The notes under the pieces are model-generated. The model ran no database searches. It was not told the DNA's origin and worked only from the letters and a program-made list of their open reading frames with translations. Source: an uncultured Rhizobium sp. (GTDB taxonomy: Bacteria; Pseudomonadota; Alphaproteobacteria; Caulobacterales; Hyphomonadaceae). Taken from it: a stretch of 64,000 bases of DNA. A program made the translations under genes and the position numbers. Shown one piece after another: positions 9,307 through 36,968 of the stretch (the first letter of the stretch is position 1; each line of letters starts with the position of its first letter). The DNA lies in assembly GCA_964529555.1 (NCBI GenBank), contig CAZGWV010000001.1, forward strand, positions 24,592 to 88,591. Reading direction: 5' to 3'.

Positions 9307-9756
9307 TCAGGAATCAATCTGAACAATTTGAAACGACCAACCAATTTTTGAAACATGATTGTTTTCTAGTTCAATAAAAACACGACCGTGGCCAGCCCCG
9401 TCATGACGATGGTATATCTCATAAAGTTCGTCGGCCTTGCACCCCAGTTCACCTTGTAGGCTGCTTTTGTGGCAGGCAATAGTCCCGGAAGATTCAAAAC
9501 CCTGTCGCGCCAGTGCATCGTTTGTAGTAATGTAATCGTCTCCTATCGTGACTCCGAACTTTGAGCCAGTCGATATGTATCCATAGTACGGCGTATCTGC
9601 TCCCAGAGGTATGGGTCGAGGCTGGCCGCAGCTTGGTATAGTTATGCAGACGAGAATAATTAAGACGGCCGCTGCGAGTTTTGTCACGGGCAAAACTCTG
9701 CGTCTATACAGTATGCTATGAGGTAAATCATAAACATATACGTTACCTTTCGACAT
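9307..9756 (-). CDS. Putative immunity lipoprotein for the orphan rhs-CT of locus A
   Basis: 149 aa, visibly AT-richer than its surroundings. Lipoprotein-type signal (...VCITIPSC/GQ). It starts 57 nt downstream of the orphan rhs-CT stop. The call is positional only; I recognise no family. Confidence 0.5.
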   Translation of the reverse strand: MSKGNVYVYDLPHSILYRRRVLPVTKLAAAVLIILVCITIPSCGQPRPIPLGADTPYYGYISTGSKFGVTIGDDYITTNDALARQGFESSGTIACHKSSLQGELGCKADELYEIYHRHDGAGHGRVFIELENNHVSKIGWSFQIVQIDS

Positions 9757-9813
9757 GCATAATGGATACTGCAGGAGTAACCGTCTGGAGATGGCGGTCG
9801 CGGCGGAGATGTT

Positions 9814-11940
9814 TCACGGCACTGGCAACCACGGATCGTAGTCCGGCCAAGGCTGCGACGGCGCCGTGCCGACTGAGTCTGGCCTACTCCAGCCCGGCGC
9901 ATAGCCATCTGGGCGTATGCCGTCATCATCGCTCGAGCCTGGCTGTGCCTCCTCCAAGACCCGTGCAGCACCGGCGTTGCTATTGCCATGACCTCTTCGG
10001 CTAAAGAACGCATCGTACTTTGTGGGTCCTGGATTCTCAGGCGTGCCAACAATCTCGTCCACTCGTTTTCCAGCACGGATGATTGCCTCGTCTGTGAAGC
10101 CTTTTCCCGTCAAGTCGACTTGATGAGTAATCTCTATTCTGCCCTTTGCCGCGTCCTGGTCATCCTTGTTGGTTGGAGAACTAGGGTCTCCTGCCGTTTC
10201 GACGAGTTGACCATGCGGGCCACTCCCGTACTGCGGACCATACGAAAACCGAGCACGCTCAGAACCGTCAGAGTTTGTTACGACTATGAAGCAGTGTTGG
10301 CCAAAAGTCATAACGGGCCTGCAGAGTAGAGTAGAATCCCGGCCGGTAGGATCCACTTTATTCATCGGATCGTTCCCGACATAGGCGTACAGGTTCATCT
10401 GGTCTTGCGTCCCGATCGGATCGGTCTGCATGAACCTGCCGAGGTCGGGATTGTAGATGCGGGCCTTGTAGTAATAGAGCCCGATCTCCGGCAGCCAGGT
10501 CTGGCCGGTGTACTGGAACCGGCCGGTGTAGGTTCCGCTCGGATTGCCGTATTCGTCATAGCGCATGTAGGTCACCGCCGATCCGGTGTCGGCGGCGATC
10601 ACCGAGCCGCGCTCGTCCTTGAACAGGTGGCGCTTGTCCGAGGTTCCCGCGCCCTCGAACCACACGATCGGATCGTCCACGCCCGGCCCATGCACATAGC
10701 GGCGCAGCAGCGTGTTCGAGCCGTTGTACTCCGCGATCAGCCGCGTCCCGTCATAGAGGAACTTCGTCGTCGTGCCGCCCTGCGCGATGGAGAGCAGCCG
10801 CCCGGTCGGATCGTAGGCGAGCGCCGCGCCGTTGGACGACGATGTCAGCCGGTTGGAGCTGTCATAGGTATAGGTCTTGGTCGTGTCGTTCGTCGTGTTG
10901 CCGCGGCCGTCATAGGCGAGGCTTGAGCCGGCCACCGTCGTGTACTGGTTGAGCCCGTTCACCGCATAGGCGTCGGTGAACGTCGCGCCATAGGTCCACT
11001 CATAGAGCGCGCCCGCCGCCGTCCGCGTCGTCAGCTGGCCCGCCGGGGAGTAGCCGAACGTGCGCGAGAGGTCATAGGTGGAGCCGCCCGTCACCAGATC
11101 ATGGCTCAGCCCGGCAAGCCGCGAGAGCGCATCATAGGTGTACGCCGTGCGCGCCACGCCCGAGGCGCAGGACGAAGCCGTCCCCGTCCCCCGGCACATC
11201 GACGCCCGCCGGCCCAGCTGATCGGCGTAATACGTCGCCAGCACGTCGGCCCCGGATGTCGCGCCGTTGAGCCCGATCAGCTTCAGCGATCCGTCGTCGA
11301 AATACTGGTAGTTCGTGTAGAACCCAGAGCCCGGATATGTCAGCTGCGTGCGCTGGCCCGCCGTGTCATAGGCGTAGGCGACCGTCCCGTTGGGCTGCGC
11401 CTCGCTCGTGACCCGCCCGAGCGCGTCATAGGTCCAGCTGAGCGTCGCGCCCGTCTGCGCCGCCGAGACCAGGTTGGCGAAATTGTCATACCCGTTGGTG
11501 ACGTCCAGCTCGGAGCCGGGCCTGTTGATGAAACGCAGCCGGCCCAGATTGTCGTACGTGCTGGCCACCGTCAGCCCGTCGCGCCGCCGCTCGGATGTCC
11601 GGTTGCCCGCCGCGTCATAGCCGTATTCCTCATAGTCCGTCGTCGAGCTTGTCCCCGCGCCAACGGCCGGCGAGGGATAACGCAGCCGCCGCAGCCTGTT
11701 GTGGCCATCATATTCATGGGTCGTCAGGTTGCCGGCTGCATCGCGCAAGGCGCCGACCTGTCCCTTGAGGAGATAAGTCATGGTCCGTTCGGCGCGCGCA
11801 TACGGCGTGCCATGGCCCGTGCGCAGCGTTTCAACGTCGCCATCGGCAAAATACGTCATATGCGTAATGCGATCCGCACCGAACGACCCGGCCGCGCTCT
11901 GCGTGCACGCGGCGGGAAGCGACCCGAACAGGGCGCACAC
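9814..11940 (-). CDS. Orphan Rhs C-terminal cassette (YD-repeat core fragment + distinct toxin tip), locus A
   Basis: 708 aa with no signal peptide or N-terminal domain. YD repeats throughout and a core-end motif ...[18 protein letters not shown] followed by a unique 175-aa tip (9814-10341). Its middle is base-for-base identical to Rhs A (see repeat features). Confidence 0.85.
10808..11686. repeat. Direct repeat copy 1 (orphan rhs), apparently 100% identical to 13540-14418
   Basis: Line-by-line comparison at a fixed offset of 2732 nt shows identical sequence. The antisense ORFs 11101.. and 13833.. in the track are identical for ~195 aa, which corroborates this. Weaker homology continues down to the DPxG motif. 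Confidence 0.85.
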
Positions 11941-11998
11941 CTTGCGGCCTATTCGTATTCGGGTTTCACAACCGTGACACCGAACGCGCCGGTTGAGT

Positions 11999-12517
11999 TT
12001 AGTCCCACCATGGAAGATCCTGCCCGAACGAAAACACGATCTTGTATGCTGGGACCGCTAAGCCTTCATTTTCAGGAACATCGAATACTCTCCGCTTAGA
12101 CAAAACACTTTTGTCGCAGAACTTCTTTTCGTACCCGACGATTGGCCAAATTGCTTGCACATCCACGTCGGTTGAATCCAGCGGGATCAAATCCCAAAGC
12201 GTGGATACGTTGTGCACACTTTGATCCCCAAAGCGCGCAACCGCCCAAAATGGGCCGACGGCTGAAATCGCACAAAGCAGCCTGCTGCTATCGGAGAGCA
12301 AATCCAGAAAGAACGCCGAATCGTTATTAGGCTCCGTCAGGTCTCGGACCCAAAACATCTTGAAAAGAAGCCGAGTATTATTATCGACCCATCCCCTCTC
12401 AAGGGTCCTCGCAACTGCGCGGAAATTCGGTGATCGAAGATCGCCGAGGCTTCTTTCAGCCTCAGACTCGATATCTTCAATTTGCGCAACTTTTCTCTGG
12501 TCCGCAGGGGTAACCAT
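11999..12517 (-). CDS. Putative immunity protein for Rhs A
   Basis: AT-richer ORF overlapping the Rhs A stop (12477). I prefer the second ATG at 12517, which is preceded by AGGAAG 6 nt upstream; the tracked start is 12535. Acidic cytoplasmic-type protein with no recognised family. Positional inference. Confidence 0.5.
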
Positions 12518-15500
12518 GGATTCTTCCTGAGGCATCTTCTACCGTTCTTACCGAAGTCTGAGACCCGCCATTAGGCCCGGTACCCGTTGCAACGCCGTAA
12601 GCCTTTTCACGGGCAATGCCACCGTTTGGATCGACACGAACAATTTGACCATTCGCTGCGGTGTCACGAGTAAGTTTTTCGCCCGAGCCAGCCCCAAAGA
12701 AAGTCGATGTCGGTTTACCTTGAGAAACGCGATTCACATTCTGTGGCGTACCCGGGATGTGACCAGCCTGCTTTTGCGCAGCAATAATTGCTTGACTTGG
12801 TGACTGCGGACCAAACGTCTTTACGGCAACAGCGCCTGCAGCGCCCACCGACACCGGATTTTCAGCGAGAGCATTCGCTGCAGTAGTAACTGCGGTCGTT
12901 GTCTGCGGGAACCTGGTTGCGAATGCGACAGCCACTCCCGGAGCCGCAACAGCGCCTACAACCGCTACCGCCACAGCTGCGGCTTGCGGTCCTTGCACGC
13001 GGTCATTCTGCACTCTGCGCATCATGAAGTCGGCATCCTGCGGATAGTGATAGCAGAATTCGCACATCCCCGTCGGATCCGTCTTGTTCATCGGATCATT
13101 CCCGACATAGGCATAGAGGTTCATGCTGTCCTCGTAGCCGATGGGATCGGTCTGCATGAACCTGCCGAGGTCTGGATTGTAGACGCGGGCCTTGTAGTAA
13201 TAGAGGCCGATCTCCGAGAGCCAGGCCTGTCCCGTGTACTGGAACCGGGGGACGGTCGAGCCGGTGATGCTCGGATTGCCGTACTCGTCATACTTGATCG
13301 TGGTGACCGATGAGCCCGTGTCGGCGGCGATCACGGAGCCGCGCTCATCCTTGAACATGTTGCGCTTGTTGGTCGTGCCCGCGCTGCCATACCAGACGAT
13401 GGGATCGTCCACGCCGTCCCCGTGCACATAGCGGCGGAGCAGGCTGTTGGAGCCATTGTACTCCGCGATCAATCGCGTGCCGTCATAGAGGAACTTCGTC
13501 GTCGTCCCGCCCTGCGCGATGGAGAGCAGGCGGCCGGTGGGATCGTAGGCGAGCGCCGCGCCGTTGGACGACGATGTCAGCCGGTTGGAGCTGTCATAGG
13601 TATAGGTCTTGGTCGTGTCGTTCGTCGTGTTGCCGCGGCCGTCATAGGCGAGGCTTGAGCCGGCCACCGTCGTGTACTGGTTGAGCCCGTTCACCGCATA
13701 GGCGTCGGTGAACGTCGCGCCATAGGTCCACTCATAGAGCGCGCCCGCCGCCGTCCGCGTCGTCAGCTGGCCCGCCGGGGAGTAGCCGAACGTGCGCGAG
13801 AGGTCATAGGTGGAGCCGCCCGTCACCAGATCATGGCTCAGCCCGGCAAGCCGCGAGAGCGCATCATAGGTGTACGCCGTGCGCGCCACGCCCGAGGCGC
13901 AGGACGAAGCCGTCCCCGTCCCCCGGCACATCGACGCCCGCCGGCCCAGCTGATCGGCGTAATACGTCGCCAGCACGTCGGCCCCGGATGTCGCGCCGTT
14001 GAGCCCGATCAGCTTCAGCGATCCGTCGTCGAAATACTGGTAGTTCGTGTAGAACCCAGAGCCCGGATATGTCAGCTGCGTGCGCTGGCCCGCCGTGTCA
14101 TAGGCGTAGGCGACCGTCCCGTTGGGCTGCGCCTCGCTCGTGACCCGCCCGAGCGCGTCATAGGTCCAGCTGAGCGTCGCGCCCGTCTGCGCCGCCGAGA
14201 CCAGGTTGGCGAAATTGTCATACCCGTTGGTGACGTCCAGCTCGGAGCCGGGCCTGTTGATGAAACGCAGCCGGCCCAGATTGTCGTACGTGCTGGCCAC
14301 CGTCAGCCCGTCGCGCCGCCGCTCGGATGTCCGGTTGCCCGCCGCGTCATAGCCGTATTCCTCATAGTCCGTCGTCGAGCTTGTCCCCGCGCCAACGGCC
14401 GGCGAGGGATAACGCAGCTTCTTCAGCCGCCCGAACCCGTCATACTCATAGGTGGTGAGATTGTTCTTCGCGTCCTTCACGCTCGCCGTCACGCCCGAGA
14501 GCGTATAGGTGAACGTCCGCTCGTTCCGCGCCAGCGCCGAGCCATGGCCCGATCGGATCACCGTCACGTCGCCGTTGGCGTTGTAGCTCGTCTTCACGAT
14601 CCGGTCCGGCCCGAACGCTCCCGTCGCCCCCGGCGAGCACGCGGGCGGCGGCGAACCGTAGATCGCCGGGTTCATCCGCACCGCGACACAGTCCACCCGG
14701 CTCATCACGTCATAGGAATACTGCGTCACCGCCTCGGGCTGGCCCGTGCCCACATTGATCGCATTCTCGCGGATCTTCCGGCCGTAGGCGTCGTAGGCGG
14801 TGGTGGATTTGGCCAGCACCGTCATGGTCGAGGCGCAGAAATTGTTGGCCGCCGAGCAGTTGGCCGGGGAGGACACCGTCCCTTGCTCCACCATCGTCAC
14901 CTGGCCGTCGGCGTTATAGGTCGTGCGCGTCGCACGGTAGAGCAGTGCGCCGCCGCCATCGGGATCGGGCGACACCACGACGCGCGGCTGGCGCATGGCG
15001 TCGTAATAGGTCCACACCTTGTCCGCCGTTCCGCTGAGCGGGCCGTCGATGCTCGCGATGTCCCCCTGCGGCGTGTAGGTCGTCGCAACCCGCGAATTGG
15101 TGGACGTGTACGCCGTCGCGTTGTTCCCGGCCCGCGTCACCACCAGCGTCGGGCGCCGCTTGGCGTCGTAGGTGGTCTCCACCACCGTCTCGTCCGCCGT
15201 TCCCGCGCAGGACGCCGTCGTCCGGCACGACTTCACCGTCGCCACCCGCGTGACCCCGCCCGATGTGGCGTAGGTGTAGCGCGTCTGTGGCTGGATCGCT
15301 GAATAGGGACCCGAGCCCGGCGCGACGCTTGTCGCCGTCAGCACCCCGCCATGACTGTAGTCGTAGGTGTAGGCCGTCGCGAACCCGCGCACGTCCGTCA
15401 CGCTGGTCGGCCGCCGGCACACCAGCGGATTGGACGTGCAGGCGGGATAGCTGGCGGATGTGACCGCGTTGGAAAACCCGAAGCCGGGCCTGGGCGAGCG

Positions 15501-16781
15501 CGTGATCTGGGTGACCACGCCCGTCGCCGGGCTGCGCGTAACAAGGATGCCGCCCCCCTCCGGGACGGAGCCCGAGACGAACCCCGATCCGTTCTGGACG
15601 GTGGTTCTCTCATATCCCAGGGGATTGGTGACGCTACTCATCTCCGTCAGGTAAGCGTCGTCTATTGGGCGATAGTCCCAGAAATACTTGTAGGCGGTCT
15701 GGCCGTTGTTCGGATCGGTGACGGTCGTGGTGAAGTAATAATCCTCCTCCGGATGGGGGCAGGTGATATGCGGCAGCGGCGCGCCCTGCGGTGTGGGTAT
15801 GCAATCCGACCATGCATAGCTGTACTGCCACGTCCCGAGGCCGTCCGTGGCGGAGGTCACCCGCCGGACACTGTCGGTGAGCATCTCGTGCGTATAGGAG
15901 ACCGATGCGCCGGACGTCTTCGTCGGCCGGGCCATCCCGATCAACTTGGAGGCTAAGGGCGCGTCGCTGTCATAGATGATCCGCGTGGTGCGGTTGAGCG
16001 AATCCGTGACGTGATGCTCGAACCCGACCTTCGAGAACGTCAGGCTGGGCCAGGTGATCGAATAGGTGCATGTCGCGGCGTTCGGCGCGCAGGGATCGAC
16101 CGCCGTGTCGAACGCCGTGACCTTGGTGAGCGTGGTTCCAGAATAGTCGAAATGCAGCTGGTAGCCGAGATTGTTGGCGACGGACCGGATATTGGAATCT
16201 GCATAGGTATAGGTGATGACCTCGCCGTCCGGCCTGGTGATCGACGTGATCAGGCCCTGATTGGACTGGTATCGCGAGCCCATGCCCGTCTTCTTGGTAT
16301 AGTCGTACGTGCCGATGCTCCCGTCCGGGGCGGTGTAGGTGAAGATGTCGCCGGACTTGGTGAGCGTCCCCAGCCCATCCATCAGCACAAAGGGGCCGCC
16401 GCAGCCATTGGGCTGGAAGATGTTCGACTTTCCCATAAAGGTGACGGTGTAATATTTGTAGCAATAGGGGTCGGACCCGACGGGCTTGTTGATGCCGCCC
16501 CAGTTGCTGTAGCGCCAATACCTGGCCTTGCTGTCCCAGGACGCCGCAAACGACAGCCCGCCATTGGCAGGATCGCCGACGCTGATGGTCGGGGACGAGA
16601 TCTGCACCGAACCGGACGACATATCGACGCCGAACCTGTCGACCGTCTGAAACGTCGGCGGCGGCTCGATGTCGGTCTGCGCAAACGCCGGCCCCGCGAC
16701 AAGGCCGATCACGCCGGCAGCCATGGCTATCGACACGCGGAATGCTCGGACAAAAAGCTCGCAGTCGAGTCTTTTGCGCAT
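12477..16781 (-). CDS. Rhs-family polymorphic toxin A, full length with Sec signal peptide
   Basis: Tracked ORF trimmed to the ATG at 16781, which follows GGGGGGA ([36 protein letters not shown]...). ~1434 aa with dozens of YD repeats (YxYDxxGR). Core end [12 protein letters not shown], then a 196-aa C-terminal tip. Confidence 0.9.
13540..14418. repeat. Direct repeat copy 2 (Rhs A core), identical to 10808-11686
   Basis: See copy 1. Identity ends abruptly at 14418/11686 (…aacgcagc | ttcttcag versus cgccgcag). Confidence 0.85.
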
Positions 16782-16813: not shown

Positions 16814-17098
16814 CTAGCTGCGCTTCTCGTAAGCGCGGACAACTTCCTTGCCCGACCCCGTGGCCTTGAACGGCGAGGTCAGCCGACCGTCGAGACGCGC
16901 AACTTCCCCCGTGACCGTGTTGACGACGATCTTGCGGCAGCGCATTTCGTCGCAAACCTCTCTCTCCGCCCAGGGATCGCTGAGCGTGCCTTCCGCAGAG
17001 ATCACGACTTCGCCCGCCTTGCCTGGAGTTCTCTGGGCGAGGGCCGCCGATGAGGCCAAGGCGGCGCAGACCGCCAGCCATGCTATCCTGTCAATCAT
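16814..17098 (-). CDS. Small secreted two-Cys protein, Rhs-associated family (copy A)
   Basis: 94 aa, signal peptide [22 protein letters not shown]. Shares G.VV....G.L..PW....C....C..I..N..TGE(V/I)AR..G..S.F...G.G.EV with ORFs 28080-28409, 36628-36963 and 43110-43415. Sits between the YD/cadherin gene and Rhs A. Confidence 0.7.
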
Positions 17099-17153: not shown

Positions 17154-17681
17154 TCACAGCCACTCATAGCATTCATCCGCAGGCTTGCACAAAAGGAACT
17201 CGATCGTCAGCGTCGCGGAAGATGTCTGATTGGTCGAATCCTTGATGGAGTACGTAAAGTTCTTGACGCCGGGCGTCGCCGTTCCAGACCACAGGAGCGC
17301 ATCCGCGCCACCCACGTTGACGATGGAGAGCCCAGAGCCGCTCACCGACGTTATCGAGAGAGTGTCCGCCGGCAGATCGGGATCGGTGTCGTTGGAAAGG
17401 ACGTAATAATAGGCCGTCACCGGATTTTTGTAGTAGGTGGCGTAATAGTCGTTGTGGGCAGTCGGCGGCGAGCCGCCACCGCCGCCCGCCGAACAGCCCG
17501 ACGCCGCCGAAACGCTCGTCCGGTTGTCGGCGCTGTCATAGTTATAGCAGACAGGCGTGCCCGAACTCGGCGTGACCTTCGTCAACCGCCCCAGCGCGTC
17601 GTAGGAATATGTCTGCGATACCTGCGCGGTCGCGCTTGACGTCAGCAGGGCCATAACAACGGCCACACCAAAGCAACGCAT
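17154..17681 (-). CDS. Secreted YD-repeat + cadherin-like/VCBS-type domain protein, Rhs-associated family (copy A)
   Basis: Tracked ORF trimmed to the ATG at 17681, after GGAGGGGG. Signal peptide MRCFGVAVVMALLTSSATA/Q, two YD repeats (YSYDALGRLTKV, YNYDSADNRT), a Gly linker, a VLSNDTDPDLPADTLSITSV cadherin-like signature, and a C-terminal C-x5-C. Confidence 0.7.
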   Translation of the reverse strand: MRCFGVAVVMALLTSSATAQVSQTYSYDALGRLTKVTPSSGTPVCYNYDSADNRTSVSAASGCSAGGGGGSPPTAHNDYYATYYKNPVTAYYYVLSNDTDPDLPADTLSITSVSGSGLSIVNVGGADALLWSGTATPGVKNFTYSIKDSTNQTSSATLTIEFLLCKPADECYEWL

Positions 17682-17752: not shown

Positions 17753-17780
17753 GCGAGACTCGCAATCGAAAACTTCGCGC
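17753..17780 (-). promoter_or_regulatory. Conserved upstream element of the locus A operon (shared with locus B)
   Basis: On the minus strand this reads GCGCGAAGTTTTCGATTGCGAGTCTCGC, ~75-100 nt upstream of the YD/cadherin ATG. A near-identical CACGCGAAGTTTTTGATTGCGAGTCGCG sits at the equivalent place upstream of locus B. Confidence 0.3.
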
Positions 17781-18490: not shown

Positions 18491-18504
18491 GGGCGATTGC
18501 CTCG

Positions 18505-22485: not shown

Positions 22486-22488
22486 GGA

Positions 22489-24216: not shown

Positions 24217-24218
24217 GG

Positions 24219-27546: not shown

Positions 27547-27574
27547 CACGCGAAGTTTTTGATTGCGAGTCGCG
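27547..27574 (+). promoter_or_regulatory. Conserved upstream element of the locus B operon (shared with locus A)
   Basis: CACGCGAAGTTTTTGATTGCGAGTCGCG, ~75-100 nt upstream of the ATG at 27646. Matches the locus A element at 17753-17780 (minus strand). Confidence 0.3.
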
Positions 27575-27645: not shown

Positions 27646-28083
27646 ATGCGTTTCCTGGGAGTTGGTGTCGCTGCCATATTGTTGGTGTCGAGCGCGACTG
27701 CTCAAGTATCGCAGATATATACGTATGGTGCGCTTGTGCGGCCTACGAAAGTTACGCCAAGTACCGGCACGGCGGCCTGTTACAATCATGATCCCACAGA
27801 CAATCGAACGACTGTGACGGCGTCAGATGGATGTACATTCTCTGGCGGCGGCGGAGGTCAGAATTCTCCCCCGCAGGCAGTGGACGTCTACGTGTTCATT
27901 CAAAGTCGGGAGTCAAGCTGGTCAGGGAGCTTGGGCGTTCTCTTCAATGACATCGACGCCGATCTGCCAAGCGGCACTTTGAGTGTAACCTCGGTCTCGG
28001 GGAGCTCTTATGCGACCGTCCAGCCTAGCGGCAGCCACGATCTACCTCTACATCGCCTACTGCAATCTGGAGTGCGGGCTTGA
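27646..28083 (+). CDS. YD-repeat + cadherin-like protein, copy B (shortened, probably decaying)
   Basis: ATG at 27646 after GGGGG. Signal peptide MRFLGVGVAAILLVSSATA/Q. The YD motifs are degraded (YTYGALVRPTKV, YNHDPTDNRT). The C-terminal ~35 aa seen in copies A/C/D are missing, and the conserved C-x3-5-C tail appears in another frame (...IYLYIAYCNLECGLEP, stop at 28088-28090). Confidence 0.55.
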   Translation: MRFLGVGVAAILLVSSATAQVSQIYTYGALVRPTKVTPSTGTAACYNHDPTDNRTTVTASDGCTFSGGGGGQNSPPQAVDVYVFIQSRESSWSGSLGVLFNDIDADLPSGTLSVTSVSGSSYATVQPSGSHDLPLHRLLQSGVRA

Positions 28084-28409
28084 GCCATAGCACGAAGCTT
28101 GCGGCGGTTGCTGTCGTGATGATCGCCATGATGGCGGCGTCACTTGCAGAGGCGCGGCAGTCCTCGGCTGCGGCTGGCGGAATTGTCGTGGCAGCTGAAG
28201 GCAAGCTCGTTGCCCCTTGGATCGAGAAGCAGGCCTGCGTCAAAGGCACGGCCACCTGCAAAACCATGATCGTCAACACAGTGACGAATGAGATCGCGCA
28301 GATGGGCGAGCAACTATCCTCCCGGTTTGAAAGAACCGGGAGAGGTGGAGAAGTGCAGCGTGCCGCAAGTGCGATGGACAAAGCATTGGGTCGCGTTCCG
28401 GAGCGTTAG
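28080..28409 (+). CDS. Small secreted two-Cys protein, copy B
   Basis: 109 aa (TTG start in the track). Signal-like KLAAVAVVMIAMMAASLAEA/RQ. Family motif ...GGIVVAAEGKLVAPWIEKQACVKGTATCKTMIVNTVTNEIAQMGEQLSSRFERTGRGGEV. Confidence 0.65.
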   Translation: MSHSTKLAAVAVVMIAMMAASLAEARQSSAAAGGIVVAAEGKLVAPWIEKQACVKGTATCKTMIVNTVTNEIAQMGEQLSSRFERTGRGGEVQRAASAMDKALGRVPER

Positions 28410-28619
28410 AGCGCGCCGGCAAATCTTGGGGTTGGGCAAAGTTGATTGTTGGTCCGAGGCAGCGACAGAGTTGAGAGCTGCCGACTGGCGGTCAACTTGA
28501 GGCTCTGGAGTACAATTCGAGCTAGGGGGAAGAGCTTGATTCCTACACGATTGAATGCGGCCAAATTTTGCACCGCAGAATTGATATCCCGCCGCGGCTT
28601 GCAGCGAGTTTGGGCTGTG

Positions 28620-31600
28620 ATGTCGTGGGCAGGTCGTGTGCTTGCGCTAACTGTGATCGCTATGCTGCTTTTGCCGATCTCCGCGCTTGCGCAGCAGGTT
28701 TCCGCTCCTCCCAACATCCAGCTCTTTGATGAGAACGGTGTGAGCCTGTCGAGCCCGCACATCCGAGTCCCCGAACCGGGGGTTGCTGTCGGCGTGGAAG
28801 GAGCCGGCGGCCTTTCATTTCAGAGAACGCGCCCCCTCAAGCAGGCAGCGTTTCCTGGCGGCATTGCGCCGCCGAGTGTGACGTGGATCACGAGCAACCT
28901 AGCTGGGTACGTCACGCTTCCAGACCCCACACCTTGGAAGCCTGAGATTGCTGGGATCTCGATCGTGTATGGAGGAGCAAGCGCGTCCTTCGCGCCGTCA
29001 GCGGACAACATAACCCCAATCAATCCAGGTCCCGCTCGCGATGGAAGCAAGTTGGAGCTGATATCCGGCAAGTACATCTTCACGGCTGCCGATGGCACGA
29101 AGGTAACTTTTGATACTGCAATCAATTGTCTTACGGGATGGCGTGGAGCTGACTGGACCGATCACATGGCGATGTACGGTCTAAACCCAGCACTTACAAA
29201 ATTCGGAGCTTCAATCACAAAAGTCGAGAAGCCCGACGGCGAGGTCATTGAGTGGCACTATGTTGAGGCAGGCCCAGTTGCAAGCGAGGCATGCGGCAAA
29301 GGTCAACGGTTGCAATCTGTGACCAACAATCTGGGGTATCAGATACACTTCAAATACCAGGCTGACTCGATCTCCGACTATAATAATTGGTCTTCAAATT
29401 GGGGGAGTATTGAGAAGGTTACGGCAATAGACAATTCAGTCTACGCCTGCGCTCCCACTGCGAATTCATGTTCCGACACGGGTGGAGGAAGCGCCTGGCC
29501 CACAATCACCTACGGCGCAGAGTCCGGCGGGACGACCTATACCATTGTCGATCGGCTGGGAAACGCCACCAGGTATATCTATGCGCGACAGGTCGGAATA
29601 TACATCGACATGCTCGATCTGGTTGCAGTTCGCAGCCCCGCAAATGGAGCAGTCAACGACATCACGCTATCTCGTACCATCACCGGTTCGGCAGGTTCCG
29701 TATCATTTGCAACGGCGTCGGGTACCTGGAGTTATGGCTATTCCGGGCCTATTCCAACAAGCCCGCCCTTCAGTGTGACGTCTGTTACTGGCCCGAACGG
29801 ATATACGCGGCAACTAACCCTTTATCCCACCAGTTTCGGCTCGCTGGTGGGACAGGATCTGGTGAACGGCTACCAGATGGACTACCTGCATGATGGGCAG
29901 GGGCGCATGACGCGCGCTACCTACCCGGACGGTCGTGTGTCGCACTTCGAGTACGATGTTCGGCGCAACGTTACTCGCGTCCGACATGTCGCCAAGCCGG
30001 GATCAGGTCTTGCTGACATCAATACTTACGCGACCTACCCCGAAAGCGGCAACACGGTCTGCACGAACCCCAAGACGTGCAACAAGCCGCTGACTACCAC
30101 GGATGCCCGCGGGTTTGTGACGACCTACACCTATGACTCTGGCCATGGCGGCGTGCTTACAGAAACGAAGCCTGCGCCTGGCTCCGGGCCCTATGCGTCG
30201 ATCCAGCCGCAAACGCGCTACACTTACGCTGTGTCGGGCGGGGTCACGCGCGTTGCGACAGTCAAGTCCTGCCGGACGGCTGCGTCTTGCGCGGGAACGG
30301 CGGACGAGACCGTTGTTGAGACGACCTACAATGCAAAGCGCCTTCCTTCGCTGGTCGTGACCCGTGCGGGCAACAACGCAACGGCTTACACCGCCACCAA
30401 CTCGCGTGTGTCCACTACCTACACTCCCCAGGGCGACATAGAGAGCGTGGACGGACCGCTGAATGGAACGGCGGACAAGGTCTGGAACTACTACGACACG
30501 GTGCGCCGGCTCCGCGTGACGGTAGCTCCTGACCCGGATGCTGGCGGGTCACTGCAGTATCGCGCCTCGCGCACGACTTACGATGCCGATGGCAATCCGA
30601 CCATGGTTGAACAGGGCAGCGTGTCCGCCCCAGCGAACTGCTCGGCGGCCAACAATTTCTGCGCATCGACGATGACCGTTCTGGCGAGATCGACGGCTGT
30701 CTACGACAGCTTCGGCCGGAAGGTGCGTGGGAATGTCATCAACATCGCAACCGGTCAGCCCGAGGCGGTGACGCAGGTGAGCTATGACGCCGCCGGCCGC
30801 GTGGAGTGTACCGCCACCCGCATGAACCCTGCGGTCTACGGCTCGCTGCCAGCCGCCTGTACGCAAAGCACCGCAGGTTCCTTCGGAGCGGACCAGATCG
30901 TTCGCACGACCTATACGGCTAATGGCGATCCCCTGGTGATCCAGTCGGGCTATGGGACGCCTCTGGTGCGCAATGAGCGGACATTCACCTATCTGGCGCC
31001 AGGCCAGACCGGCACAGTCAAGGACGCGGCCAACAACCTCACCACTTACGAGTTTGATGGGTTCAACCGGGCGAAGAAGGTGCGCTATCCGTCTCTGACG
31101 GCAGGGGCGGGGACAAGCTCCACGACCGACTACGAGGAATACGGCTACGACGCTGCTGGTAACCTGACGTCCGAGCGTCGGCGCGATGGGGCCATGATCT
31201 ACAATGGCTACGACAACCTTAATCGCCTGATCACTAAGGGCGGCTCGACGATCGCGGATGTAACGAATGGCTACGACAATTTCAGCAATCTGATCTCTTC
31301 CAGCCACGCGCTTGCGGCGGTCTCCTGGACCTACGATGCGTTGGGGCGCGTGCTGACCGAGGCCCAGCCCAATGGCACTGTATCCTACGCCTACGACACG
31401 GCGGGCCGTCGCACGCAGCTGACTTATCCCGGTTCGGGGTTCTACACGAACTATCAGTATTTCGACGATGGACGTCTCAAGCTCATCGGGCTCAACGGCG
31501 CGACCACCGGCTCGGATGTGCTGGCGACGTATTACGACGATCAACTGGGACGGCGCGCCTCGATGTGCCGGGGAACGGGAACGAGTTCGTCCTGCTCCAG

Positions 31601-33002
31601 CGTGGCGCGGACGGCGTGGAGCTATGACGCCGTTTCCCGGCTGTCGGGCCTGAGCCATGATCTTGTGACCGGCGGCGCCACATACGATCTGTCGCGAACG
31701 TTCAGCTATAGCCCAGCCAGCCAGCTCGTCACGCGCACGGCGGCGACGGCGCTTTATGAGTGGGCTTACGGAGCGACGTTCTCCGATGCCTATGTCGCCA
31801 ACGGCCTCAACCAGTATACCTCGGTGGCGGGTGTGGGGCTCACCTATGACGGCCGCGGCAACACCACCAACGACGCGACCAAGGGCTATTCCTACGATGG
31901 CCTCAACCGCCTGACGTCAGCCACGAATGGGGCCAGCCTCGCTTACGATCCCACCGGCCGCCTTATGTCGGTCACCCTTGGCGGGACGACGACAAAGTTC
32001 CTCTATGACGGAACGCGGATGATCGCGGAGTACAACGGGTCCAACAGTCTGCTGCGCCGCTATGTGCATGGCGATGGCGTGGATGATCCGATCGTGTGGT
32101 ACGACAGCTCCGGCACGACCAACAAGCGCAACCTGTTCAAGGACGAACGCGGCTCGGTCGTCGCCGCCGACACGGGCTCATCCGTGACCACCATCAAGTA
32201 CGACGAATACGGCAACCCCAGTGTCACCGGCTCAACCGTTCCGCGGTTCCAGTACACCGGCCAAGCCTGGCTCTCGGAGATCGGGCTCTACTACTACAAG
32301 GCCCGCATCTACAATCCCGACCTCGGACGGTTCATGCAGATCGATCCTATCGGCTACAAGGACCAGATGAACCTCTATGCCTACGTCGGGAATGATCCGA
32401 TGGGGCGCAGCGATCCCACCGGTCTGTACGGCAGCGGCTGCGAGGGCTTCATGCAGCGCGGTGGAAGTGCGTGCTATGACTACAGTGGCGGGTGGGATGG
32501 CAGAGCCGAACGAAGCACTTCGGTGACCCCCGCGCCGCCAGGCTCCCCAATCCATGAGCCGGGGTATCCTAGCAACGGAGGTCCACCGATCGAGGACCCT
32601 CCTTTTGGCGAGCCAGCAATCGATGTTCCGTGGCTCAAGTTGATTGCGAGGGGAACAGCCCTGGCGATCATTTGGGAAATAATTGATCGGCCCGGGGGAA
32701 GGGACACCGTACCAAAGGATACGGTAGTCATTGGCAGGGGCCAAGACGTGCTGAATTTCCGATTGAGTGAAAACGAATTCAGTTTGATGAACAAGATGGG
32801 AGATTATGGTGCCGCTGCGAATATGGAGGTCAATCGGACGGTCTTTAGTGCGCTTTTACAAAGAGGAGTTAGTGTCAGAGATATCTCGCCTGGAACAGCT
32901 CCGGCAGGCTCGTTTCTAGCCATGGAACGAGAGCTCTTGCAGCAGTTTGGATACGTTCGAGAGGCGCCCGGCAAGCCGTTTTGGCGCCCCTCCTACCGGT
33001 AA
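28620..33002 (+). CDS. Rhs-family polymorphic toxin B, full length with Sec signal peptide
   Basis: Tracked ORF trimmed to the ATG at 28620 (MSWAGRVLALTVIAMLLLPISALA/QQ). ~1460 aa with YD repeats and long runs of residues identical to Rhs A. Core end GNDPMGRSDPTG, then a 192-aa unique tip (32424-33002). Confidence 0.9.
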   Translation: MSWAGRVLALTVIAMLLLPISALAQQVSAPPNIQLFDENGVSLSSPHIRVPEPGVAVGVEGAGGLSFQRTRPLKQAAFPGGIAPPSVTWITSNLAGYVTLPDPTPWKPEIAGISIVYGGASASFAPSADNITPINPGPARDGSKLELISGKYIFTAADGTKVTFDTAINCLTGWRGADWTDHMAMYGLNPALTKFGASITKVEKPDGEVIEWHYVEAGPVASEACGKGQRLQSVTNNLGYQIHFKYQADSISDYNNWSSNWGSIEKVTAIDNSVYACAPTANSCSDTGGGSAWPTITYGAESGGTTYTIVDRLGNATRYIYARQVGIYIDMLDLVAVRSPANGAVNDITLSRTITGSAGSVSFATASGTWSYGYSGPIPTSPPFSVTSVTGPNGYTRQLTLYPTSFGSLVGQDLVNGYQMDYLHDGQGRMTRATYPDGRVSHFEYDVRRNVTRVRHVAKPGSGLADINTYATYPESGNTVCTNPKTCNKPLTTTDARGFVTTYTYDSGHGGVLTETKPAPGSGPYASIQPQTRYTYAVSGGVTRVATVKSCRTAASCAGTADETVVETTYNAKRLPSLVVTRAGNNATAYTATNSRVSTTYTPQGDIESVDGPLNGTADKVWNYYDTVRRLRVTVAPDPDAGGSLQYRASRTTYDADGNPTMVEQGSVSAPANCSAANNFCASTMTVLARSTAVYDSFGRKVRGNVINIATGQPEAVTQVSYDAAGRVECTATRMNPAVYGSLPAACTQSTAGSFGADQIVRTTYTANGDPLVIQSGYGTPLVRNERTFTYLAPGQTGTVKDAANNLTTYEFDGFNRAKKVRYPSLTAGAGTSSTTDYEEYGYDAAGNLTSERRRDGAMIYNGYDNLNRLITKGGSTIADVTNGYDNFSNLISSSHALAAVSWTYDALGRVLTEAQPNGTVSYAYDTAGRRTQLTYPGSGFYTNYQYFDDGRLKLIGLNGATTGSDVLATYYDDQLGRRASMCRGTGTSSSCSSVARTAWSYDAVSRLSGLSHDLVTGGATYDLSRTFSYSPASQLVTRTAATALYEWAYGATFSDAYVANGLNQYTSVAGVGLTYDGRGNTTNDATKGYSYDGLNRLTSATNGASLAYDPTGRLMSVTLGGTTTKFLYDGTRMIAEYNGSNSLLRRYVHGDGVDDPIVWYDSSGTTNKRNLFKDERGSVVAADTGSSVTTIKYDEYGNPSVTGSTVPRFQYTGQAWLSEIGLYYYKARIYNPDLGRFMQIDPIGYKDQMNLYAYVGNDPMGRSDPTGLYGSGCEGFMQRGGSACYDYSGGWDGRAERSTSVTPAPPGSPIHEPGYPSNGGPPIEDPPFGEPAIDVPWLKLIARGTALAIIWEIIDRPGGRDTVPKDTVVIGRGQDVLNFRLSENEFSLMNKMGDYGAAANMEVNRTVFSALLQRGVSVRDISPGTAPAGSFLAMERELLQQFGYVREAPGKPFWRPSYR
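31592..32390. repeat. Direct repeat copy 1 (Rhs B core 3' part), ~90-plus % identical to 33564-34362
   Basis: Same sequence at an offset of 1972 nt, starting ctgctccagcgtggcgcggacggcgtggagctatgac. Scattered mismatches. Ends near the DPxG core-end motif. Confidence 0.8.
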
Positions 33003-33007
33003 GCGAC

Positions 33008-33400
33008 ATGATGCAATACCCTTTTTTCACAAATTTTGCGGACACCGTCCGAGGTGTATTTTCATATTTGAAAGATTATAATTTTGTAGAAACCGCCGCG
33101 GATGAACGCAGAATAATTTATTCGAAGGCCAATTGGGTTATTTCTGTTTATTTTGTGCCGTTTGAGTACGAAATAAGCTTGTGCATTGCTTATTCCGAGG
33201 CGTGCTTTGAGATCTATTCTTTTATTGAGGCGCTTGACCCGGAAGAATTTGCAAAAACCTATGTCCTAACTGCACAGAATGACGACGAGCTACAAAGTTC
33301 GCTGGAGTCCTTGTCAAGCAGATTGCTAAAATTTGGGGCGAGAGCGCTCGACGGAGATCCAACAATTATGGAGTTTGTAGCTAAGGAGCTGTCAGGCTAA
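33008..33400 (+). CDS. Putative immunity protein for Rhs B
   Basis: ATG at 33008, 6 nt after the Rhs B stop (the tracked start 32981 overlaps it). Strongly AT-rich relative to flanks. 130 aa, no signal peptide. Positional inference. Confidence 0.5.
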   Translation: MMQYPFFTNFADTVRGVFSYLKDYNFVETAADERRIIYSKANWVISVYFVPFEYEISLCIAYSEACFEIYSFIEALDPEEFAKTYVLTAQNDDELQSSLESLSSRLLKFGARALDGDPTIMEFVAKELSG

Positions 33401-33440
33401 CGCGGTATACGAATTGGAGGGACTGTTATTTATGCACGGC

Positions 33441-33563
33441 CTGGAGAGGGTGATGGCCGGCCCCCATCGGCGCGTCCGGTGTCAATGTTAGTGCATTGAG
33501 GCCTCCCATTTCTGCAGACACGATGCGGCGAGCTGGCCAGGCGGGGATGACGATGGCCTCCGG
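33441..33563. mobile_element. IS3-family terminal fragment (IR-like end plus ~110 bp) abutting the orphan rhs of locus B
   Basis: tgatggccggcccccatcggcgcgtccggtgtcaatgttagtgcattgaggcctccc... aligns at ~85% identity with 35650-35760, the end of the IS3-family transposase remnant. Homology stops exactly where rhs homology starts (33564). Confidence 0.55.
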
Positions 33564-35010
33564 CTGCTCCAGCGTGGCGCGGACGGCGTGGAGCTATGAC
33601 GCCGTTTCCCGGCTGTCGGGCCTGAGCCATGATCTTGTGACCGGCGGCGCCACATACGATCTGTCGCGAACGTTCAGCTATAGCCCGGCCAGCCAGCTCG
33701 TCACGCGCACGGCGGCGACGGCGCTTTATGAGTGGCCCTATACCGCGACGTTCACCGACGCCTATGTCGCCAACGGTCTCAACCAGTATACCTCGGTGGC
33801 GGGTGTGGGGCTGACCTATGACGGTCGCGGCAACACCACCAACGACACGACCAAGGGCTACTCCTACGACGGTCTCAACCGCCTGACGTCGGCAACAAAC
33901 GGGGCCAGCCTCGCTTACGATCCCACCGGCCGCCTGATGTCGGTCACTTTGAGCGGGACGACGACCAAGTTCCTCTATGACGGAACGCGGTTGATCGCGG
34001 AGTACAATGGGTCCAACAGTCTGCTGCGCCGCTATGTGCATGGCGATGGCGTCGATGATCCCATCGTGTGGTATGGAAGCGCTGGAACGACCAACAAGCG
34101 CAACCTGTTCAAGGATGAGCGCGGCTCGGTCATCGCCGCCGACACGGGCTCATCCGTGACCACCCTCAAATACGATGAGTATGGCAACCCCAGTGTCACC
34201 GGCTCCACCGTTCCGCGGTTCCAGTACACCGGCCAAGCGTGGCTCTCGGAGATCGGGCTCTACCATTACAAAGCCCGCATCTACAATCCGGACCTTGGAC
34301 GGTTCATGCAGACAGACCCTATTGGCACAAACGACCAAATGAATATCTACGCCTACGTGGGGAATGATCCGATGGGGCTAGTTGACCCAACGGGACTTCA
34401 CAAAATATGTGGGGAAATGACGAGCGAAGGGATTCTCCCTTGCGTGTTTGTGGATGCCGACGGCGATGGCAGTGTCACGGACGATGATCTGACCAGTGAT
34501 CAAGCAAGTGCATTTGCTAAGAGTTTTGCGAATTTTATTCGCGACAATGCTGGGGCAAATCTGCGCAGATCGGGGTTGCAAGTTGTAGATCGGACCCAGA
34601 GCAACGGCGACTTGGCGAAAATGTTGCGAGTAAGCAGCCAGTTCGTCGGAGCTGCAAGAGATGGCGGTTGGGGGAGCCGAAGAACGAACGCCATCATAAC
34701 TATCGAATCAAAGGCAGCCTTTGAGGAGGTGGGCATGGGGGGCGCGCCAGAACATGTCTTGCTCCATTGGAATGACTACGACAAGTACGTGGACGAGTAT
34801 CGGTTTAGTGTCGGCTTTAGGGACCACTTGCTTATGCCTGGCAATGCAGCGCGCGCGATCATACACGCAGACCTGCATAACGAATGGGGAAAAGGTAGTG
34901 ATGAAAAATGGCGTCATTTCCGACTCGATCATGAAGCAAAATTACGTTTGAGAGACTACGGCCTCGCGAACGGCGGCTGCACTGGAGCGGGCGGATTCAC
35001 GGGATGCTGA
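33496..35010 (+). CDS. Orphan Rhs C-terminal cassette, locus B (start codons supplied by IS-derived sequence)
   Basis: 504 aa. From residue ~24 (SSVARTAWSYDAVSRLSGLSHD...) it parallels Rhs B. Core end GNDPMGLVDPTG, then a unique 204-aa tip (34396-35010). It has no signal peptide or N-terminal domain. Confidence 0.8.
   Translation: MRPPISADTMRRAGQAGMTMASGCSSVARTAWSYDAVSRLSGLSHDLVTGGATYDLSRTFSYSPASQLVTRTAATALYEWPYTATFTDAYVANGLNQYTSVAGVGLTYDGRGNTTNDTTKGYSYDGLNRLTSATNGASLAYDPTGRLMSVTLSGTTTKFLYDGTRLIAEYNGSNSLLRRYVHGDGVDDPIVWYGSAGTTNKRNLFKDERGSVIAADTGSSVTTLKYDEYGNPSVTGSTVPRFQYTGQAWLSEIGLYHYKARIYNPDLGRFMQTDPIGTNDQMNIYAYVGNDPMGLVDPTGLHKICGEMTSEGILPCVFVDADGDGSVTDDDLTSDQASAFAKSFANFIRDNAGANLRRSGLQVVDRTQSNGDLAKMLRVSSQFVGAARDGGWGSRRTNAIITIESKAAFEEVGMGGAPEHVLLHWNDYDKYVDEYRFSVGFRDHLLMPGNAARAIIHADLHNEWGKGSDEKWRHFRLDHEAKLRLRDYGLANGGCTGAGGFTGC
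33564..34362. repeat. Direct repeat copy 2 (orphan rhs B)
   Basis: See 31592-32390. Confidence 0.8.
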
Positions 35011-35534
35011 AATCTTTCCTGCATTACATTTTCGCTTCTTCCATCGCGTGGCTTTCGGCTTGCGAAACTCCTGACGTGCAAAAAGTGGAATATTGCCAAT
35101 CGGATAATTCGCCGAGCGATGTGGGTCGAACGTACAAGCGAATTTTTTTTCTCGATTTGGACTCAGTAGGTGGCAGCGACCTACTAATGCCATATGTTCC
35201 GATTGAACTGACGGATGGGCAAGCGATCACTTCCCCATATCCAATTTATCTTCCCCGGGCTGGAGCCTCTCTGACGGCGGGAATTAAGAGTGTTGAAGAG
35301 GTAGATTTTTCTTTCGAACAGATCTCCGCCAAAGACAATCTTTGGTATGTTGAAGCAAAATTTCGCGATTTGGACTCGTCGGTTTTCCATCGGGAAAGCG
35401 TTGTCTACATTTATTCAACTACTGAAGGAATACTATTTTTCAAAGCGGTCACTACATTTCTTCCCGACGGCCAATTGATAAGCCATAGCTTTCGTCGTTG
35501 CGACGAGCGGGTTCCTGGGCTTCGATCTTTCTGA
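35004..35534 (+). CDS. Putative immunity lipoprotein for orphan rhs-CT B
   Basis: 176 aa. The ATG overlaps the orphan stop (ATGCTGA). Lipobox ...IAWLSAC/E. AT-rich. Positional inference. Confidence 0.5.
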   Translation: MLKSFLHYIFASSIAWLSACETPDVQKVEYCQSDNSPSDVGRTYKRIFFLDLDSVGGSDLLMPYVPIELTDGQAITSPYPIYLPRAGASLTAGIKSVEEVDFSFEQISAKDNLWYVEAKFRDLDSSVFHRESVVYIYSTTEGILFFKAVTTFLPDGQLISHSFRRCDERVPGLRSF

Positions 35535-36963: not shown

Positions 36964-36968
36964 GACGC

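Follow-up and report, generated by a model that had tools for sequence, protein, structure and literature searches.

A divergent type II secretion system linked to signal-peptide Rhs toxins in Alphaproteobacteria, and the case for a shared export route

How does a Rhs toxin that begins with a cleavable signal peptide leave a Gram-negative cell? Gram-negative Rhs proteins are usually delivered by type VI secretion systems (T6SS), and to our knowledge they have been regarded almost exclusively as cargo of these systems or as subunits of Tc toxins. The question is raised by a 64,000-nucleotide stretch from an uncultured Rhizobium sp. placed by GTDB in the Hyphomonadaceae (assembly GCA_964529555.1, contig CAZGWV010000001.1, positions 24,592 to 88,591), hereafter the window, in which a type II secretion system (T2SS) gene cluster lies between two Rhs toxin loci. 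An earlier interpretation made from the letters alone, the sequence-only reading, proposed that this T2SS releases the neighbouring toxins. Comparative analysis now favours T2SS-dependent Rhs export as the best explanation, with a T2SS lineage that would be specialised for Rhs polymorphic toxins, and we judge this reading rather probable.

The two Rhs loci form arms around the T2SS cluster (17948-27332, minus strand). Each arm contains, in the same order, an accessory gene for a YD-hairpin/cadherin protein, a gene for a small secreted protein with two cysteines, a rhs gene, an immunity candidate, an orphan Rhs fragment with its own C-terminal toxin domain (CT) and a second immunity candidate. 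The left arm runs entirely on the minus strand from 17681 to 9307, downstream of the T2SS genes and on their strand. The right arm runs entirely on the plus strand from 27646 to 35534, divergent from gspD. Both arms are transcribed away from the T2SS, and the listing of open reading frames (ORFs) and profile matches agrees with the gene order and outward orientation first described. The account of two bracketing Rhs loci is correct as far as it goes, but tblastn and hidden Markov models (HMMs) reveal four three-gene modules of accessory, small protein and signal-peptide Rhs (SP-Rhs), the additional two at 36628-42475 and 43110-46730. These third and fourth modules lie 9-17 kb from the T2SS, and in both the accessory and small-protein genes are divergent to Rhs. 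Elsewhere on the same 153,555-bp contig, outside the window, a fifth paralogue of the accessory (P0122) is encoded.

Gene calls within the T2SS cluster derive from Pfam and NCBIfam profile searches of the window ORFs. All genes are on the minus strand, in the order D, K-like, G, E, F, I, J-like, L-like, M, C/PilP-like and prepilin peptidase. GspD (25392-27332) is a secretin of a distinct clade (Secretin 5.4e-46, three Secretin_N domains, a weak GspD N0 match), about 36% identical to annotated alphaproteobacterial GspD proteins. The major pseudopilin GspG (24219-24740; T2SSG 5.4e-25) reaches 111.5 bits with TIGR01710 and passes its cutoff of 88.85. The ATPase GspE (22489-24216; T2SSE 3.6e-119) has an MshEN N-terminal domain and scores 476 bits with the GspE model TIGR02533 against 433 bits with PilB. 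The inner-membrane platform protein GspF (21298-22485; T2SSF 1e-37) has GspF as its top NCBIfam match at 182 bits. Although T2SS models match them best, GspE and GspF score under the NCBIfam equivalog cutoffs, which marks them as divergent proteins. GspM (18942-19679) is of the XpsM type (T2SSM_b 1.5e-9; NF040576 at 59.6 bits against a cutoff of 60), and its true start is probably near 19490.

The remaining components are called from weaker signals. The minor pseudopilin GspI (20924-21298) has an N_methyl motif and weak TIGR01707/XpsI matches. The GspC/PilP-like gene (18505-18945) has weak NCBIfam matches (pilP_fam 6e-4, GspC_delta 7e-3), and its position is kept in eight related loci, cited here by our L numbers (L001-L005, L119, L123, L124). 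The J-like minor pseudopilin (20440-20955) is called from its position and its prepilin-type N-terminus with an N_methyl motif. The GspL-like assembly-platform protein (19481-20476) is called from its position and a weak PilN match at residues 253-321; orthologues are present in L001-L005 and L013. The K-like minor pseudopilin candidate (24688-25395) has a prepilin-like N-terminus without Glu5 and no family match; its call follows from position, and the gene occupies the same slot between gspD and gspG in all clade loci. Pfam searches at E values up to 1 returned nothing for the K-like or C-like proteins, and Pfam and NCBIfam gave no GspH candidate in the cluster. The prepilin peptidase (17948-18490) is a short, GspO-like form of 180 aa (Peptidase_A24, 2.7e-19). 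Made up of the Peptidase_A24 domain alone, it resembles Tad-type enzymes, and the N-terminal domain seen in classical GspO/PilD is missing; L123 has the peptidase gene between gspG and gspE and not at the cluster end. A type IV pilus or a conjugative thin pilus was considered as an identity for the cluster and rejected in view of GspG, the XpsM-type GspM and the GspD-type secretin. Judged by these profiles, the cluster is a real but divergent T2SS. The gsp-like set first recognised is backed by profiles for D, G, E, F, M and the peptidase, and weakly for I, C and L. Promoter and terminator scans of both junctions between the T2SS and the arms returned nothing informative.

All four Rhs proteins of the window begin with a signal peptide that has a basic n-region and a hydrophobic core of mean Kyte-Doolittle value 2.0-3.0. 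The cleavage sites read …GPAFA/QT in RhsL (12477-16781, minus), …ISALA/QQ in RhsR (28620-33002, plus), …LGYA/QV in Rhs3 (37795-42084, plus) and …PAAA/QV in Rhs4 (44199-46730, plus), identical to those in the sequence-only reading. An N-terminal alignment indicates that the signal peptide is kept across 12 orthologues. About 10 residues past the cleavage site the conserved core starts (PPxF..VD..GVD..TG…IG.PG.GGL.F.R), and Pfam found no PAAR, two-partner secretion (TPS), LXG, SpvB or transmembrane trafficking domain in the N-termini. The check proposed for these N-termini, on signal peptides and on PAAR/VgrG profiles, thus returned the former and no trafficking domain. Tat was considered as a general Rhs export route and rejected, since several family members, including RhsR, L012 and L035, have a single K or R in the n-region. 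An RR pair occurs in the n-region of Rhs3 and Rhs4 and in L001, L002 (MRRAFGL), L005, L009 and L060, and some of these RR-bearing members may export a pre-folded cocoon through Tat.

The rest of each protein follows the architecture of polymorphic toxins. RHS_repeat matches all four Rhs proteins and both orphans at 1e-19 to 8e-31. In RhsL, RhsR, Rhs3 and both orphans the core ends in YYYKAR.YNP.LGRF…DP.G[LMR], after which a tail of 174-220 aa follows. The terminal motif is DPTGM at residue 1235 in RhsL (195-aa CT, with an Ala/Val-rich hydrophobic stretch), DPTGL at residue 1265 in RhsR (191-aa CT) and DPTGL at residue 1205 in Rhs3. The right orphan also carries DPTGM or DPTGL, the left orphan has the variant DPTGR, and Rhs4 has no such motif. 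The left orphan (9814-11940, minus) is a C-terminal core fragment with a distinct CT and lacks a start codon and a signal peptide; over the final 500 residues of the core it shares 91% identity with RhsL, and its CT is unrelated. The right orphan (33496-35010, plus) likewise joins a core 91% identical to RhsR to an unrelated CT. Over this 500-residue end of the core, RhsL, RhsR and the two orphans are 77-91% identical to one another, and the CT tails cannot be aligned. At E values up to 1, Pfam returned nothing for four of the five CT domains or for the scanned immunity candidates; the fifth CT, that of Rhs3, is a DUF6973 domain.

A small ORF directly follows each CT. The candidates for RhsL (11999-12535, minus) and RhsR (32981-33400, plus) are called by position and have no export signal. 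The ORF after the left orphan CT (9307-9756, minus; no Pfam match) has a hydrophobic, lipobox-like N-terminus, and the one after Rhs3 (42095-42475, plus) is membrane-anchored. By sequence reading, the last gene of the right arm (35004-35534, plus) carries a classical lipobox, WLSAC (MLKSF…WLSAC/E), so that its product is probably a periplasm-facing lipoprotein. Three of the five immunity candidates are thus lipoprotein-like or membrane-anchored, which suggests toxins that act in the envelope. As read from these sequences, the shared cores, variable CTs and orphans are the classical Rhs polymorphic-toxin and orphan-array pattern.

Rhs4 (65% identical to Rhs3) is truncated and lacks a CT. Its likeness to Rhs3 stops at 46730, abutting a truncated imuB on the other strand. 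The remnant of that gene (47135-46731, minus) codes for no more than 135 aa from the N-terminus of an ImuB/Y-family polymerase (PF00817), and upstream of it lies an ORF (47775-47023) that is ImuA-like by sequence reading and has no Pfam match. The truncated Rhs4 and the truncated imuB appear to be joined at a junction left by deletion or recombination. A relative of the ORF at this junction (34% identity) also adjoins the Rhs gene of L005.

No established Gram-negative delivery machinery accompanies these toxins in the window. Among ORFs longer than 300 aa, profile searches found no PAAR, VgrG, Hcp, Tss, TpsB, TcA or SpvB family match, which bears out the absence of vgrG, hcp, tss, TpsB and TcA genes and of a PAAR-like or other trafficking domain reported from the sequence. 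No Eag-chaperone or DUF4123/DUF1795-type gene occurs in the window either, and no DUF4150, FG-GAP, TcdB or TPS-domain match. The features that define T6SS-Rhs effectors are accordingly missing there, the N-termini being signal peptides with no PAAR, vgrG, eag or tss alongside, and no window protein has the Pfam signature of a Tc toxin or of a two-partner or contact-dependent inhibition system.

The co-occurrence of this T2SS clade with signal-peptide Rhs and accessory genes was the neighbourhood test that the sequence-only reading had put forward, and its outcome, like that of the signal-peptide check, was favourable. A scan of one genome per species, with the clade alignment as query, yielded 80 gspD-centred alphaproteobacterial loci with 10-kb flanks, which were then searched by tblastn with the window proteins. 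Counting Rhs matches of at least 60 bits, a Rhs or YD-shell gene lies within 10 kb in 31 of the 80 loci (19 of the 44 with full flanks), and in 27 of these 31 it is no more than 3.2 kb from a T2SS gene. From general Rhs copy numbers, roughly 2% of random 22-kb windows would be expected to contain one.

The association is tightest in the window's own lineage. Secretins of this clade (P0001-P0054) are at least 41% identical to the window secretin, and a gap then leads down to about 36%, the level of ordinary alphaproteobacterial GspD. On a neighbour-joining tree, the window groups with L001-L010, L012 and L014, and 11 of the 13 have a neighbouring Rhs gene; in the other two (L006, L014) the accessory gene lies at the edge of the available sequence. 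Further clade members, the metagenomic L119, L123, L124 and L125 as well as L091, are all linked. With L013 left out because its contig begins inside gspD, Rhs-module genes adjoin the T2SS in all 18 informative clade loci (window, L001-L010, L012, L014, L091, L119, L123, L124, L125).

These loci span 37-90% secretin identity and several layouts. Rhs is divergent from gspD in the window's right arm, L001 and L003-L005. The accessory and small-protein genes lie directly upstream of gspD on its strand, with Rhs divergent, in L002, L091 and L123. The whole module is upstream on the gspD strand in L007-L010, L012 and L125. Rhs follows immediately downstream on the same strand in the window's left arm and in L124, where the Rhs gene starts 107 bp past the last T2SS gene. 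In L001, L002 and L119 a second Rhs gene on the far side converges on the T2SS; the mirror-image arrangement first noted therefore describes the window and not the clade. The varied gene orders and the sequence divergence suggest that the linkage has long been maintained.

The pairing extends beyond this clade. The same SP-Rhs family is also found next to T2SS clusters whose genes run in another order (E-F-G…D), namely in Nitrospirillum, Niveispirillum, L060 and L081. Loci of the Rhizobiales type encode beside the T2SS a signal-peptide protein of 1,800-2,100 aa that combines SpvB, FG-GAP, TcdB_midN and RHS domains, and in Hyphobacterium (L059) the neighbour is a fusion of transglutaminase, DUF6531 and RHS. 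Fused TcB-TcC-like cocoons are seen at 1696-7197 in L044 and 2914-9099 in L064 (Rhizobium sp. R634, Aquibium sp.), and similar ORFs occur in L023, L027, L036, L042, L049 and L073. Nitrospirillum viridazoti BR 11140 has two T2SS loci (L015, L030), one with SP-Rhs and accessory genes and the other without, and thus offers a natural system for the study of T2SS specificity. Conjugation genes are present within 10 kb in one of 125 loci, and the pairing of T2SS and Rhs is therefore not explained by a common location on mobile islands.

The left accessory (17154-17681, minus; Pfam RHS_repeat, Big_9, Cadherin_4/5) comprises a signal peptide, a four-stranded YD beta-meander, a cadherin/Big_9 Ig-like domain and a C-terminal cysteine pair. 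The family contains 42 clusters of 165-190 aa. A 38-member alignment shows the signal peptide followed by a YD meander with the invariant pattern Y.YD..GR…Y..D.ADNR and conserved cysteines, then a Gly/Pro linker and a cadherin/Big_9 domain with NDTDPDLP. AlphaFold2 models the left accessory as a four-stranded beta-meander plus an Ig-like sandwich (predicted local distance difference test score, pLDDT, 83.7), and Foldseek places it nearest to adhesin Ig/cadherin domains in the PDB (SraP, FrhA, cadherin-23). Variants carry Calx-beta in place of cadherin (L123) or the hairpin alone (L119, L125). In Oceanicaulis sp. HTCC2633 (L014), a 960-aa protein that joins an N-terminal YD hairpin to eight Big_9/cadherin domains and one PKD domain is encoded directly after the T2SS (18681-21563); its architecture identifies it as an expanded accessory, and the sequence ends 120 bp past the gene, before any following gene could show.

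The right accessory (27646-28083, plus) occupies the expected position, as first described, but the gene is degraded. It has mutated YD motifs, an internal deletion and a frameshift; across 27646-28091 some 20-27 codons are missing and the ancestral C-terminus YIAYCNLECGLEP* is left in another frame. The neighbouring small gene and RhsR are apparently intact. Accessory genes of the third and fourth modules lie at 36969-37484 (minus; Pfam, tblastn, HMM) and 43417-43911 (minus; tblastn, HMM).

The small proteins, at 16814-17098 (left, minus), 28080-28409 (right, plus), 36628-36960 (module 3, minus) and 43110-43415 (module 4, minus), were called from a signal peptide and a conserved motif in the arms and by tblastn and HMM in the outer modules. 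The motif PW…C…C…E(I/V)A…G.G.EV, with two invariant cysteines, is common to the four window paralogues and L113, L115 and L117. AlphaFold2 predicts an all-beta core with pLDDT above 90, for which Foldseek gave no PDB fold match and Pfam nothing at E values up to 1. If the export hypothesis is right, the accessory and the small protein are two new families and partners of Rhs.

The left and right arms also share a 23-nt core, CGCGAAGTTTT[C/T]GATTGCGAGTC, at 17757-17779 (minus) and 27549-27571 (plus). It sits within a similar stretch of about 45 nt, some 75 nt upstream of the accessory start codons, and may be a module promoter or operator. The core is absent upstream of modules 3 and 4. Its restriction to the two arms reflects their paralogy and is no evidence for co-regulation with the T2SS.

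T2SS-dependent export would then proceed as follows. Rhs, accessory and small protein, each with a signal peptide, would enter the periplasm via Sec. There the Rhs shell would fold around its C-terminal toxin and cleave at PxxxxDPxG[LM]; autoproteolysis and toxin encapsulation are established for Rhs/TcC shells. The YD beta-meander of the accessory probably docks on the Rhs shell and may display its cadherin/Ig domain, of the Ca2+ type, for adhesion or for binding to a receptor, while the small disulphide-bonded beta protein may act as a second subunit or chaperone. The co-encoded T2SS would push the folded particle through the secretin to the surface or medium, as the conserved synteny and the analogy with pulA/pul and sslE/gsp suggest. 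One T2SS could serve several dispersed Rhs modules, four in the window and possibly a fifth represented by the accessory paralogue elsewhere on the contig. The toxins would be interbacterial weapons, as polymorphic CTs and orphan CT-immunity arrays indicate, with envelope targets suggested by the anchored immunity candidates. In its widest form, the model holds that alphaproteobacterial T2SS lineages have dedicated YD-shell cocoons as cargo (bare SP-Rhs, transglutaminase-Rhs and TcB-TcC-like fusions), co-exported with a YD-hairpin adhesin and a small disulphide-bonded partner, by a T6SS-independent and possibly contact-independent 'Rhs bacteriocin' route that is horizontally mobile as a unit on conjugative elements. 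We would give this broader statement an even chance.

Several points weigh against T2SS-dependent export. The case is built on sequence, and the signal peptides were called heuristically, by eye and by hydrophobicity. The rate of 31 in 80 is set against an expectation drawn from general Rhs copy numbers, and the 18 clade loci are phylogenetically non-independent. At about 150 kDa the Rhs cocoon would be near the top of known T2SS cargo size; SslE, of about 165 kDa, is a precedent. The linkage is also weak in the reverse direction. When metagenomes were scanned in reverse with an alignment of five SP-Rhs N-termini as query, T2SS genes were found in 4 of 32 SP-Rhs loci, and in 1 of the roughly 9 with at least 8 kb of upstream sequence. 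Three accessory-anchored loci contain the full triad and an immunity gene with no T2SS within 10 kb. Conversely, some alphaproteobacterial T2SS loci, such as that of Pararhizobium qamdonense p2 (H3), are without Rhs. A further plasmid match, H5 (Bradyrhizobium), proved to be a type III secretion system (T3SS) secretin and is irrelevant.

These unlinked modules favour the strongest competing explanation, in which T2SS and Rhs are independent, co-located cargo. The T2SS would secrete other proteins, and Rhs would be released in outer-membrane vesicles, by lysis or along an outer-membrane path, so far unrecognised, in which the accessory proteins take part, or would stay in the envelope. The triad of accessory, small protein and Rhs is self-contained and is kept without T2SS neighbours, its YD-hairpin ORF being found by the accessory HMM directly upstream of almost every metagenomic SP-Rhs, which makes the accessory a hallmark of the SP-Rhs family. 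Moreover, PhoD and Exo_endo_phos genes upstream of gspD in L124 could be ordinary T2SS substrates. For the unlinked modules the machine could be elsewhere in the genome, or it could be unnecessary; one-way linkage fits one machine serving dispersed substrates, and independent cargo predicts it as well. What tells against independence is the adjacency in every informative clade locus, maintained through rearrangements, and its recurrence in clusters with at least two further T2SS gene orders and beside different YD-shell architectures. As a rule no conjugation genes lie close by, and no conserved alternative exporter gene was found next to the triad in the three accessory-anchored loci. On balance we regard independent cargo as unlikely.

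Less well placed is the idea that the T2SS exports or displays only the cadherin-like accessory adhesin, with Rhs held at the cell through the accessory YD hairpin and acting on contact. The adhesin-type Ig/cadherin fold favours it, as do the Oceanicaulis HTCC2633 locus, where the T2SS is followed by the large multi-cadherin protein, and the three loci in which the accessory pair and not Rhs is co-oriented with gspD (L002, L091, L123). Yet in L124 Rhs comes directly after the T2SS with no accessory called between, and in the window's right arm the accessory has decayed while RhsR is intact. The signal peptides of Rhs itself mean that it must cross or lodge in the envelope anyway. We consider accessory-only export improbable.

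A contact-dependent injector, in which the gsp-like cluster acts like the myxobacterial Kil/Tad-like system and its pseudopilus pushes Rhs into neighbours, would supply the entry step that some toxins need. The L064 cocoon ends in a TreTu_C ADP-ribosyltransferase domain, which has a cytoplasmic target, so some T2SS-adjacent YD toxins must reach the target cytoplasm, and no other translocator is encoded nearby. The parts, however, are of T2SS type and not of type IV pilus or Tad type, with GspG above its equivalog cutoff, a GspM of XpsM type and a secretin of GspD type. Genes for a retraction ATPase or for anything needle- or spike-like are absent, and we know of no T2SS that injects proteins, which leaves this explanation very doubtful. 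Last, a T6SS encoded elsewhere in the genome, the usual Gram-negative Rhs route and one that a view limited to the window could miss, is already disfavoured to the point of being hardly credible, as cleavable signal peptides would take Rhs out of the cytoplasm where T6SS cargo loads and the window has no PAAR, VgrG, Eag-chaperone or DUF4123/DUF1795-type gene.

T2SS-dependent export can also be set against systems already described. The window Rhs proteins share the YD shell, the PxxxxDPxGL motif, the CT of about 200 aa with its immunity gene and the orphan arrays with T6SS PAAR-Rhs effectors (RhsA and RhsB of Dickeya, RhsP of Vibrio, Tse5, Rhs1 of Photorhabdus and Serratia). They differ in lacking a PAAR- or VgrG-linked N-terminus, an Eag chaperone and tss genes, the core following the signal peptide at once, and in having two secreted accessory proteins and a gsp linkage. 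WapA of Bacillus subtilis and other Gram-positive Sec-dependent Rhs-type toxins are similar in their Sec start and in combining a signal peptide, YD shell, polymorphic CT and immunity gene. In contrast to WapA, the window proteins have no cell-wall-binding repeats, come with dedicated accessory genes and T2SS linkage, and must cross a second membrane, since their host is diderm. The closest genetic parallels are pulA with pulC-O in Klebsiella and sslE/yghJ with gspC-M in Escherichia coli, where a gsp cluster lies beside a gene for a large Sec-exported protein that is its cargo. Here the proposed cargo would be a multi-copy, toxin-encapsulating Rhs cocoon with immunity genes and not a hydrolase, and the T2SS is itself divergent, with GspE and GspF under equivalog cutoffs, a short peptidase and no GspH. 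Tc TcB-TcC cocoons and bacterial teneurin-like proteins also encapsulate a toxin in a YD shell, and the T2SS-adjacent proteins of L044 and L064 have the layout of SpvB, FG-GAP, TcdB_midN and RHS; the window Rhs proteins, by contrast, have no SpvB, beta-propeller or TcdB domain, and the window encodes no TcA.

Published work touches on the question from several sides. Zhang, de Souza, Anantharaman, Iyer & Aravind (2012) classed signal-peptide RHS toxins as 'T2SS/Sec-dependent' and predicted their export through the general secretory pathway (PMC3482391). This class was defined from the signal peptide alone and across all bacteria, monoderms included, and its entry for 'signature genes in neighbourhood' is empty (PMC3482391); it has no linked gsp cluster, secretin clade or accessory proteins, unlike the system considered here. 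For Tc toxins, release is by lysis of the type X secretion system type (PMC10847048). A 2026 study of bacterial teneurin-like YD-shell toxins found delivery machinery not evident (PMC13018210). In a literature search whose coverage left out most subscription journals, no paper was found that connects Rhs with a gsp cluster, a secretin or the secretome of a T2SS. The claim that a T2SS-Rhs system is undescribed thus holds within the searched literature for the gsp-Rhs linkage, and not for the generic T2SS/Sec idea, which was already in print (PMC3482391).

The window also carries the marks of a conjugative element. To the left lie mating-pair genes and a coupling protein: TrbE/VirB4 (561-3125, minus; Pfam CagE_TrbE_VirB), a VirB3/TrbD-like protein (3160-3432, minus; Pfam VirB3), a TrbB/VirB11-like ATPase (3766-5361, minus; Pfam T2SSE) and TraG (5219-7231, minus; Pfam T4SS-DNA_transf). 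Partition and anti-restriction genes follow on the far side of a cargo region of about 45 kb, with profile matches to ParB (53479-55407, plus) and ArdC (61073-61981, plus). No relaxase, integrase, attachment site or tRNA gene was seen inside the window. Among PLSDB plasmids, megablast with the T2SS region gave no match, tblastn with the window secretin gave only distant GspD or T3SS secretins, and no homologue of the accessory protein was found. The view that the weapon rides on a conjugative element is therefore sound for the window and does not extend to the related loci in general. Of the related loci, L088 (1350-7644) alone has genuine conjugation genes (TrbE, TrbB) no further than 10 kb from an SP-Rhs module, and its flank contains no T2SS. 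The window also encodes two giant STAND-type NTPases, one of 1368 aa at 47964-52070 (plus) and one of 1342 aa at 55474-59502 (minus), the second with an N-terminal helix-turn-helix (HTH) and HEAT repeats. PADLOC gave weak matches alone (PDC-M54A, RmrA HTH); the two may be defence or regulatory cargo of the element.

What is new here, as far as sequence analysis goes, is support for a T2SS lineage that has Rhs cocoons as dedicated cargo, together with two accessory families. The conserved link between a distinct T2SS clade and the SP-Rhs and accessory module amounts to a concrete, genetically testable hypothesis, and carriers exist in culture: Henriciella algicola CCUG 67844, Nitrospirillum viridazoti BR 11140, Niveispirillum sp. 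KHB5.9 and Oceanicaulis sp. HTCC2633. If T2SS-dependent export is correct, the range of T2SS cargo would grow by a new class, toxin-filled protein capsules of about 150 kDa, and a conjugative element would be seen to transport a complete arsenal of secretion system and toxins. The way in which signal-peptide YD-shell toxins exit Gram-negative cells would be explained as well, and marine and soil Alphaproteobacteria would have a new class of interbacterial weapon. That the pairing recurs in many Alphaproteobacteria that are only distantly related points to a form of Rhs export in Gram-negative bacteria that is independent of the T6SS and so far undescribed.

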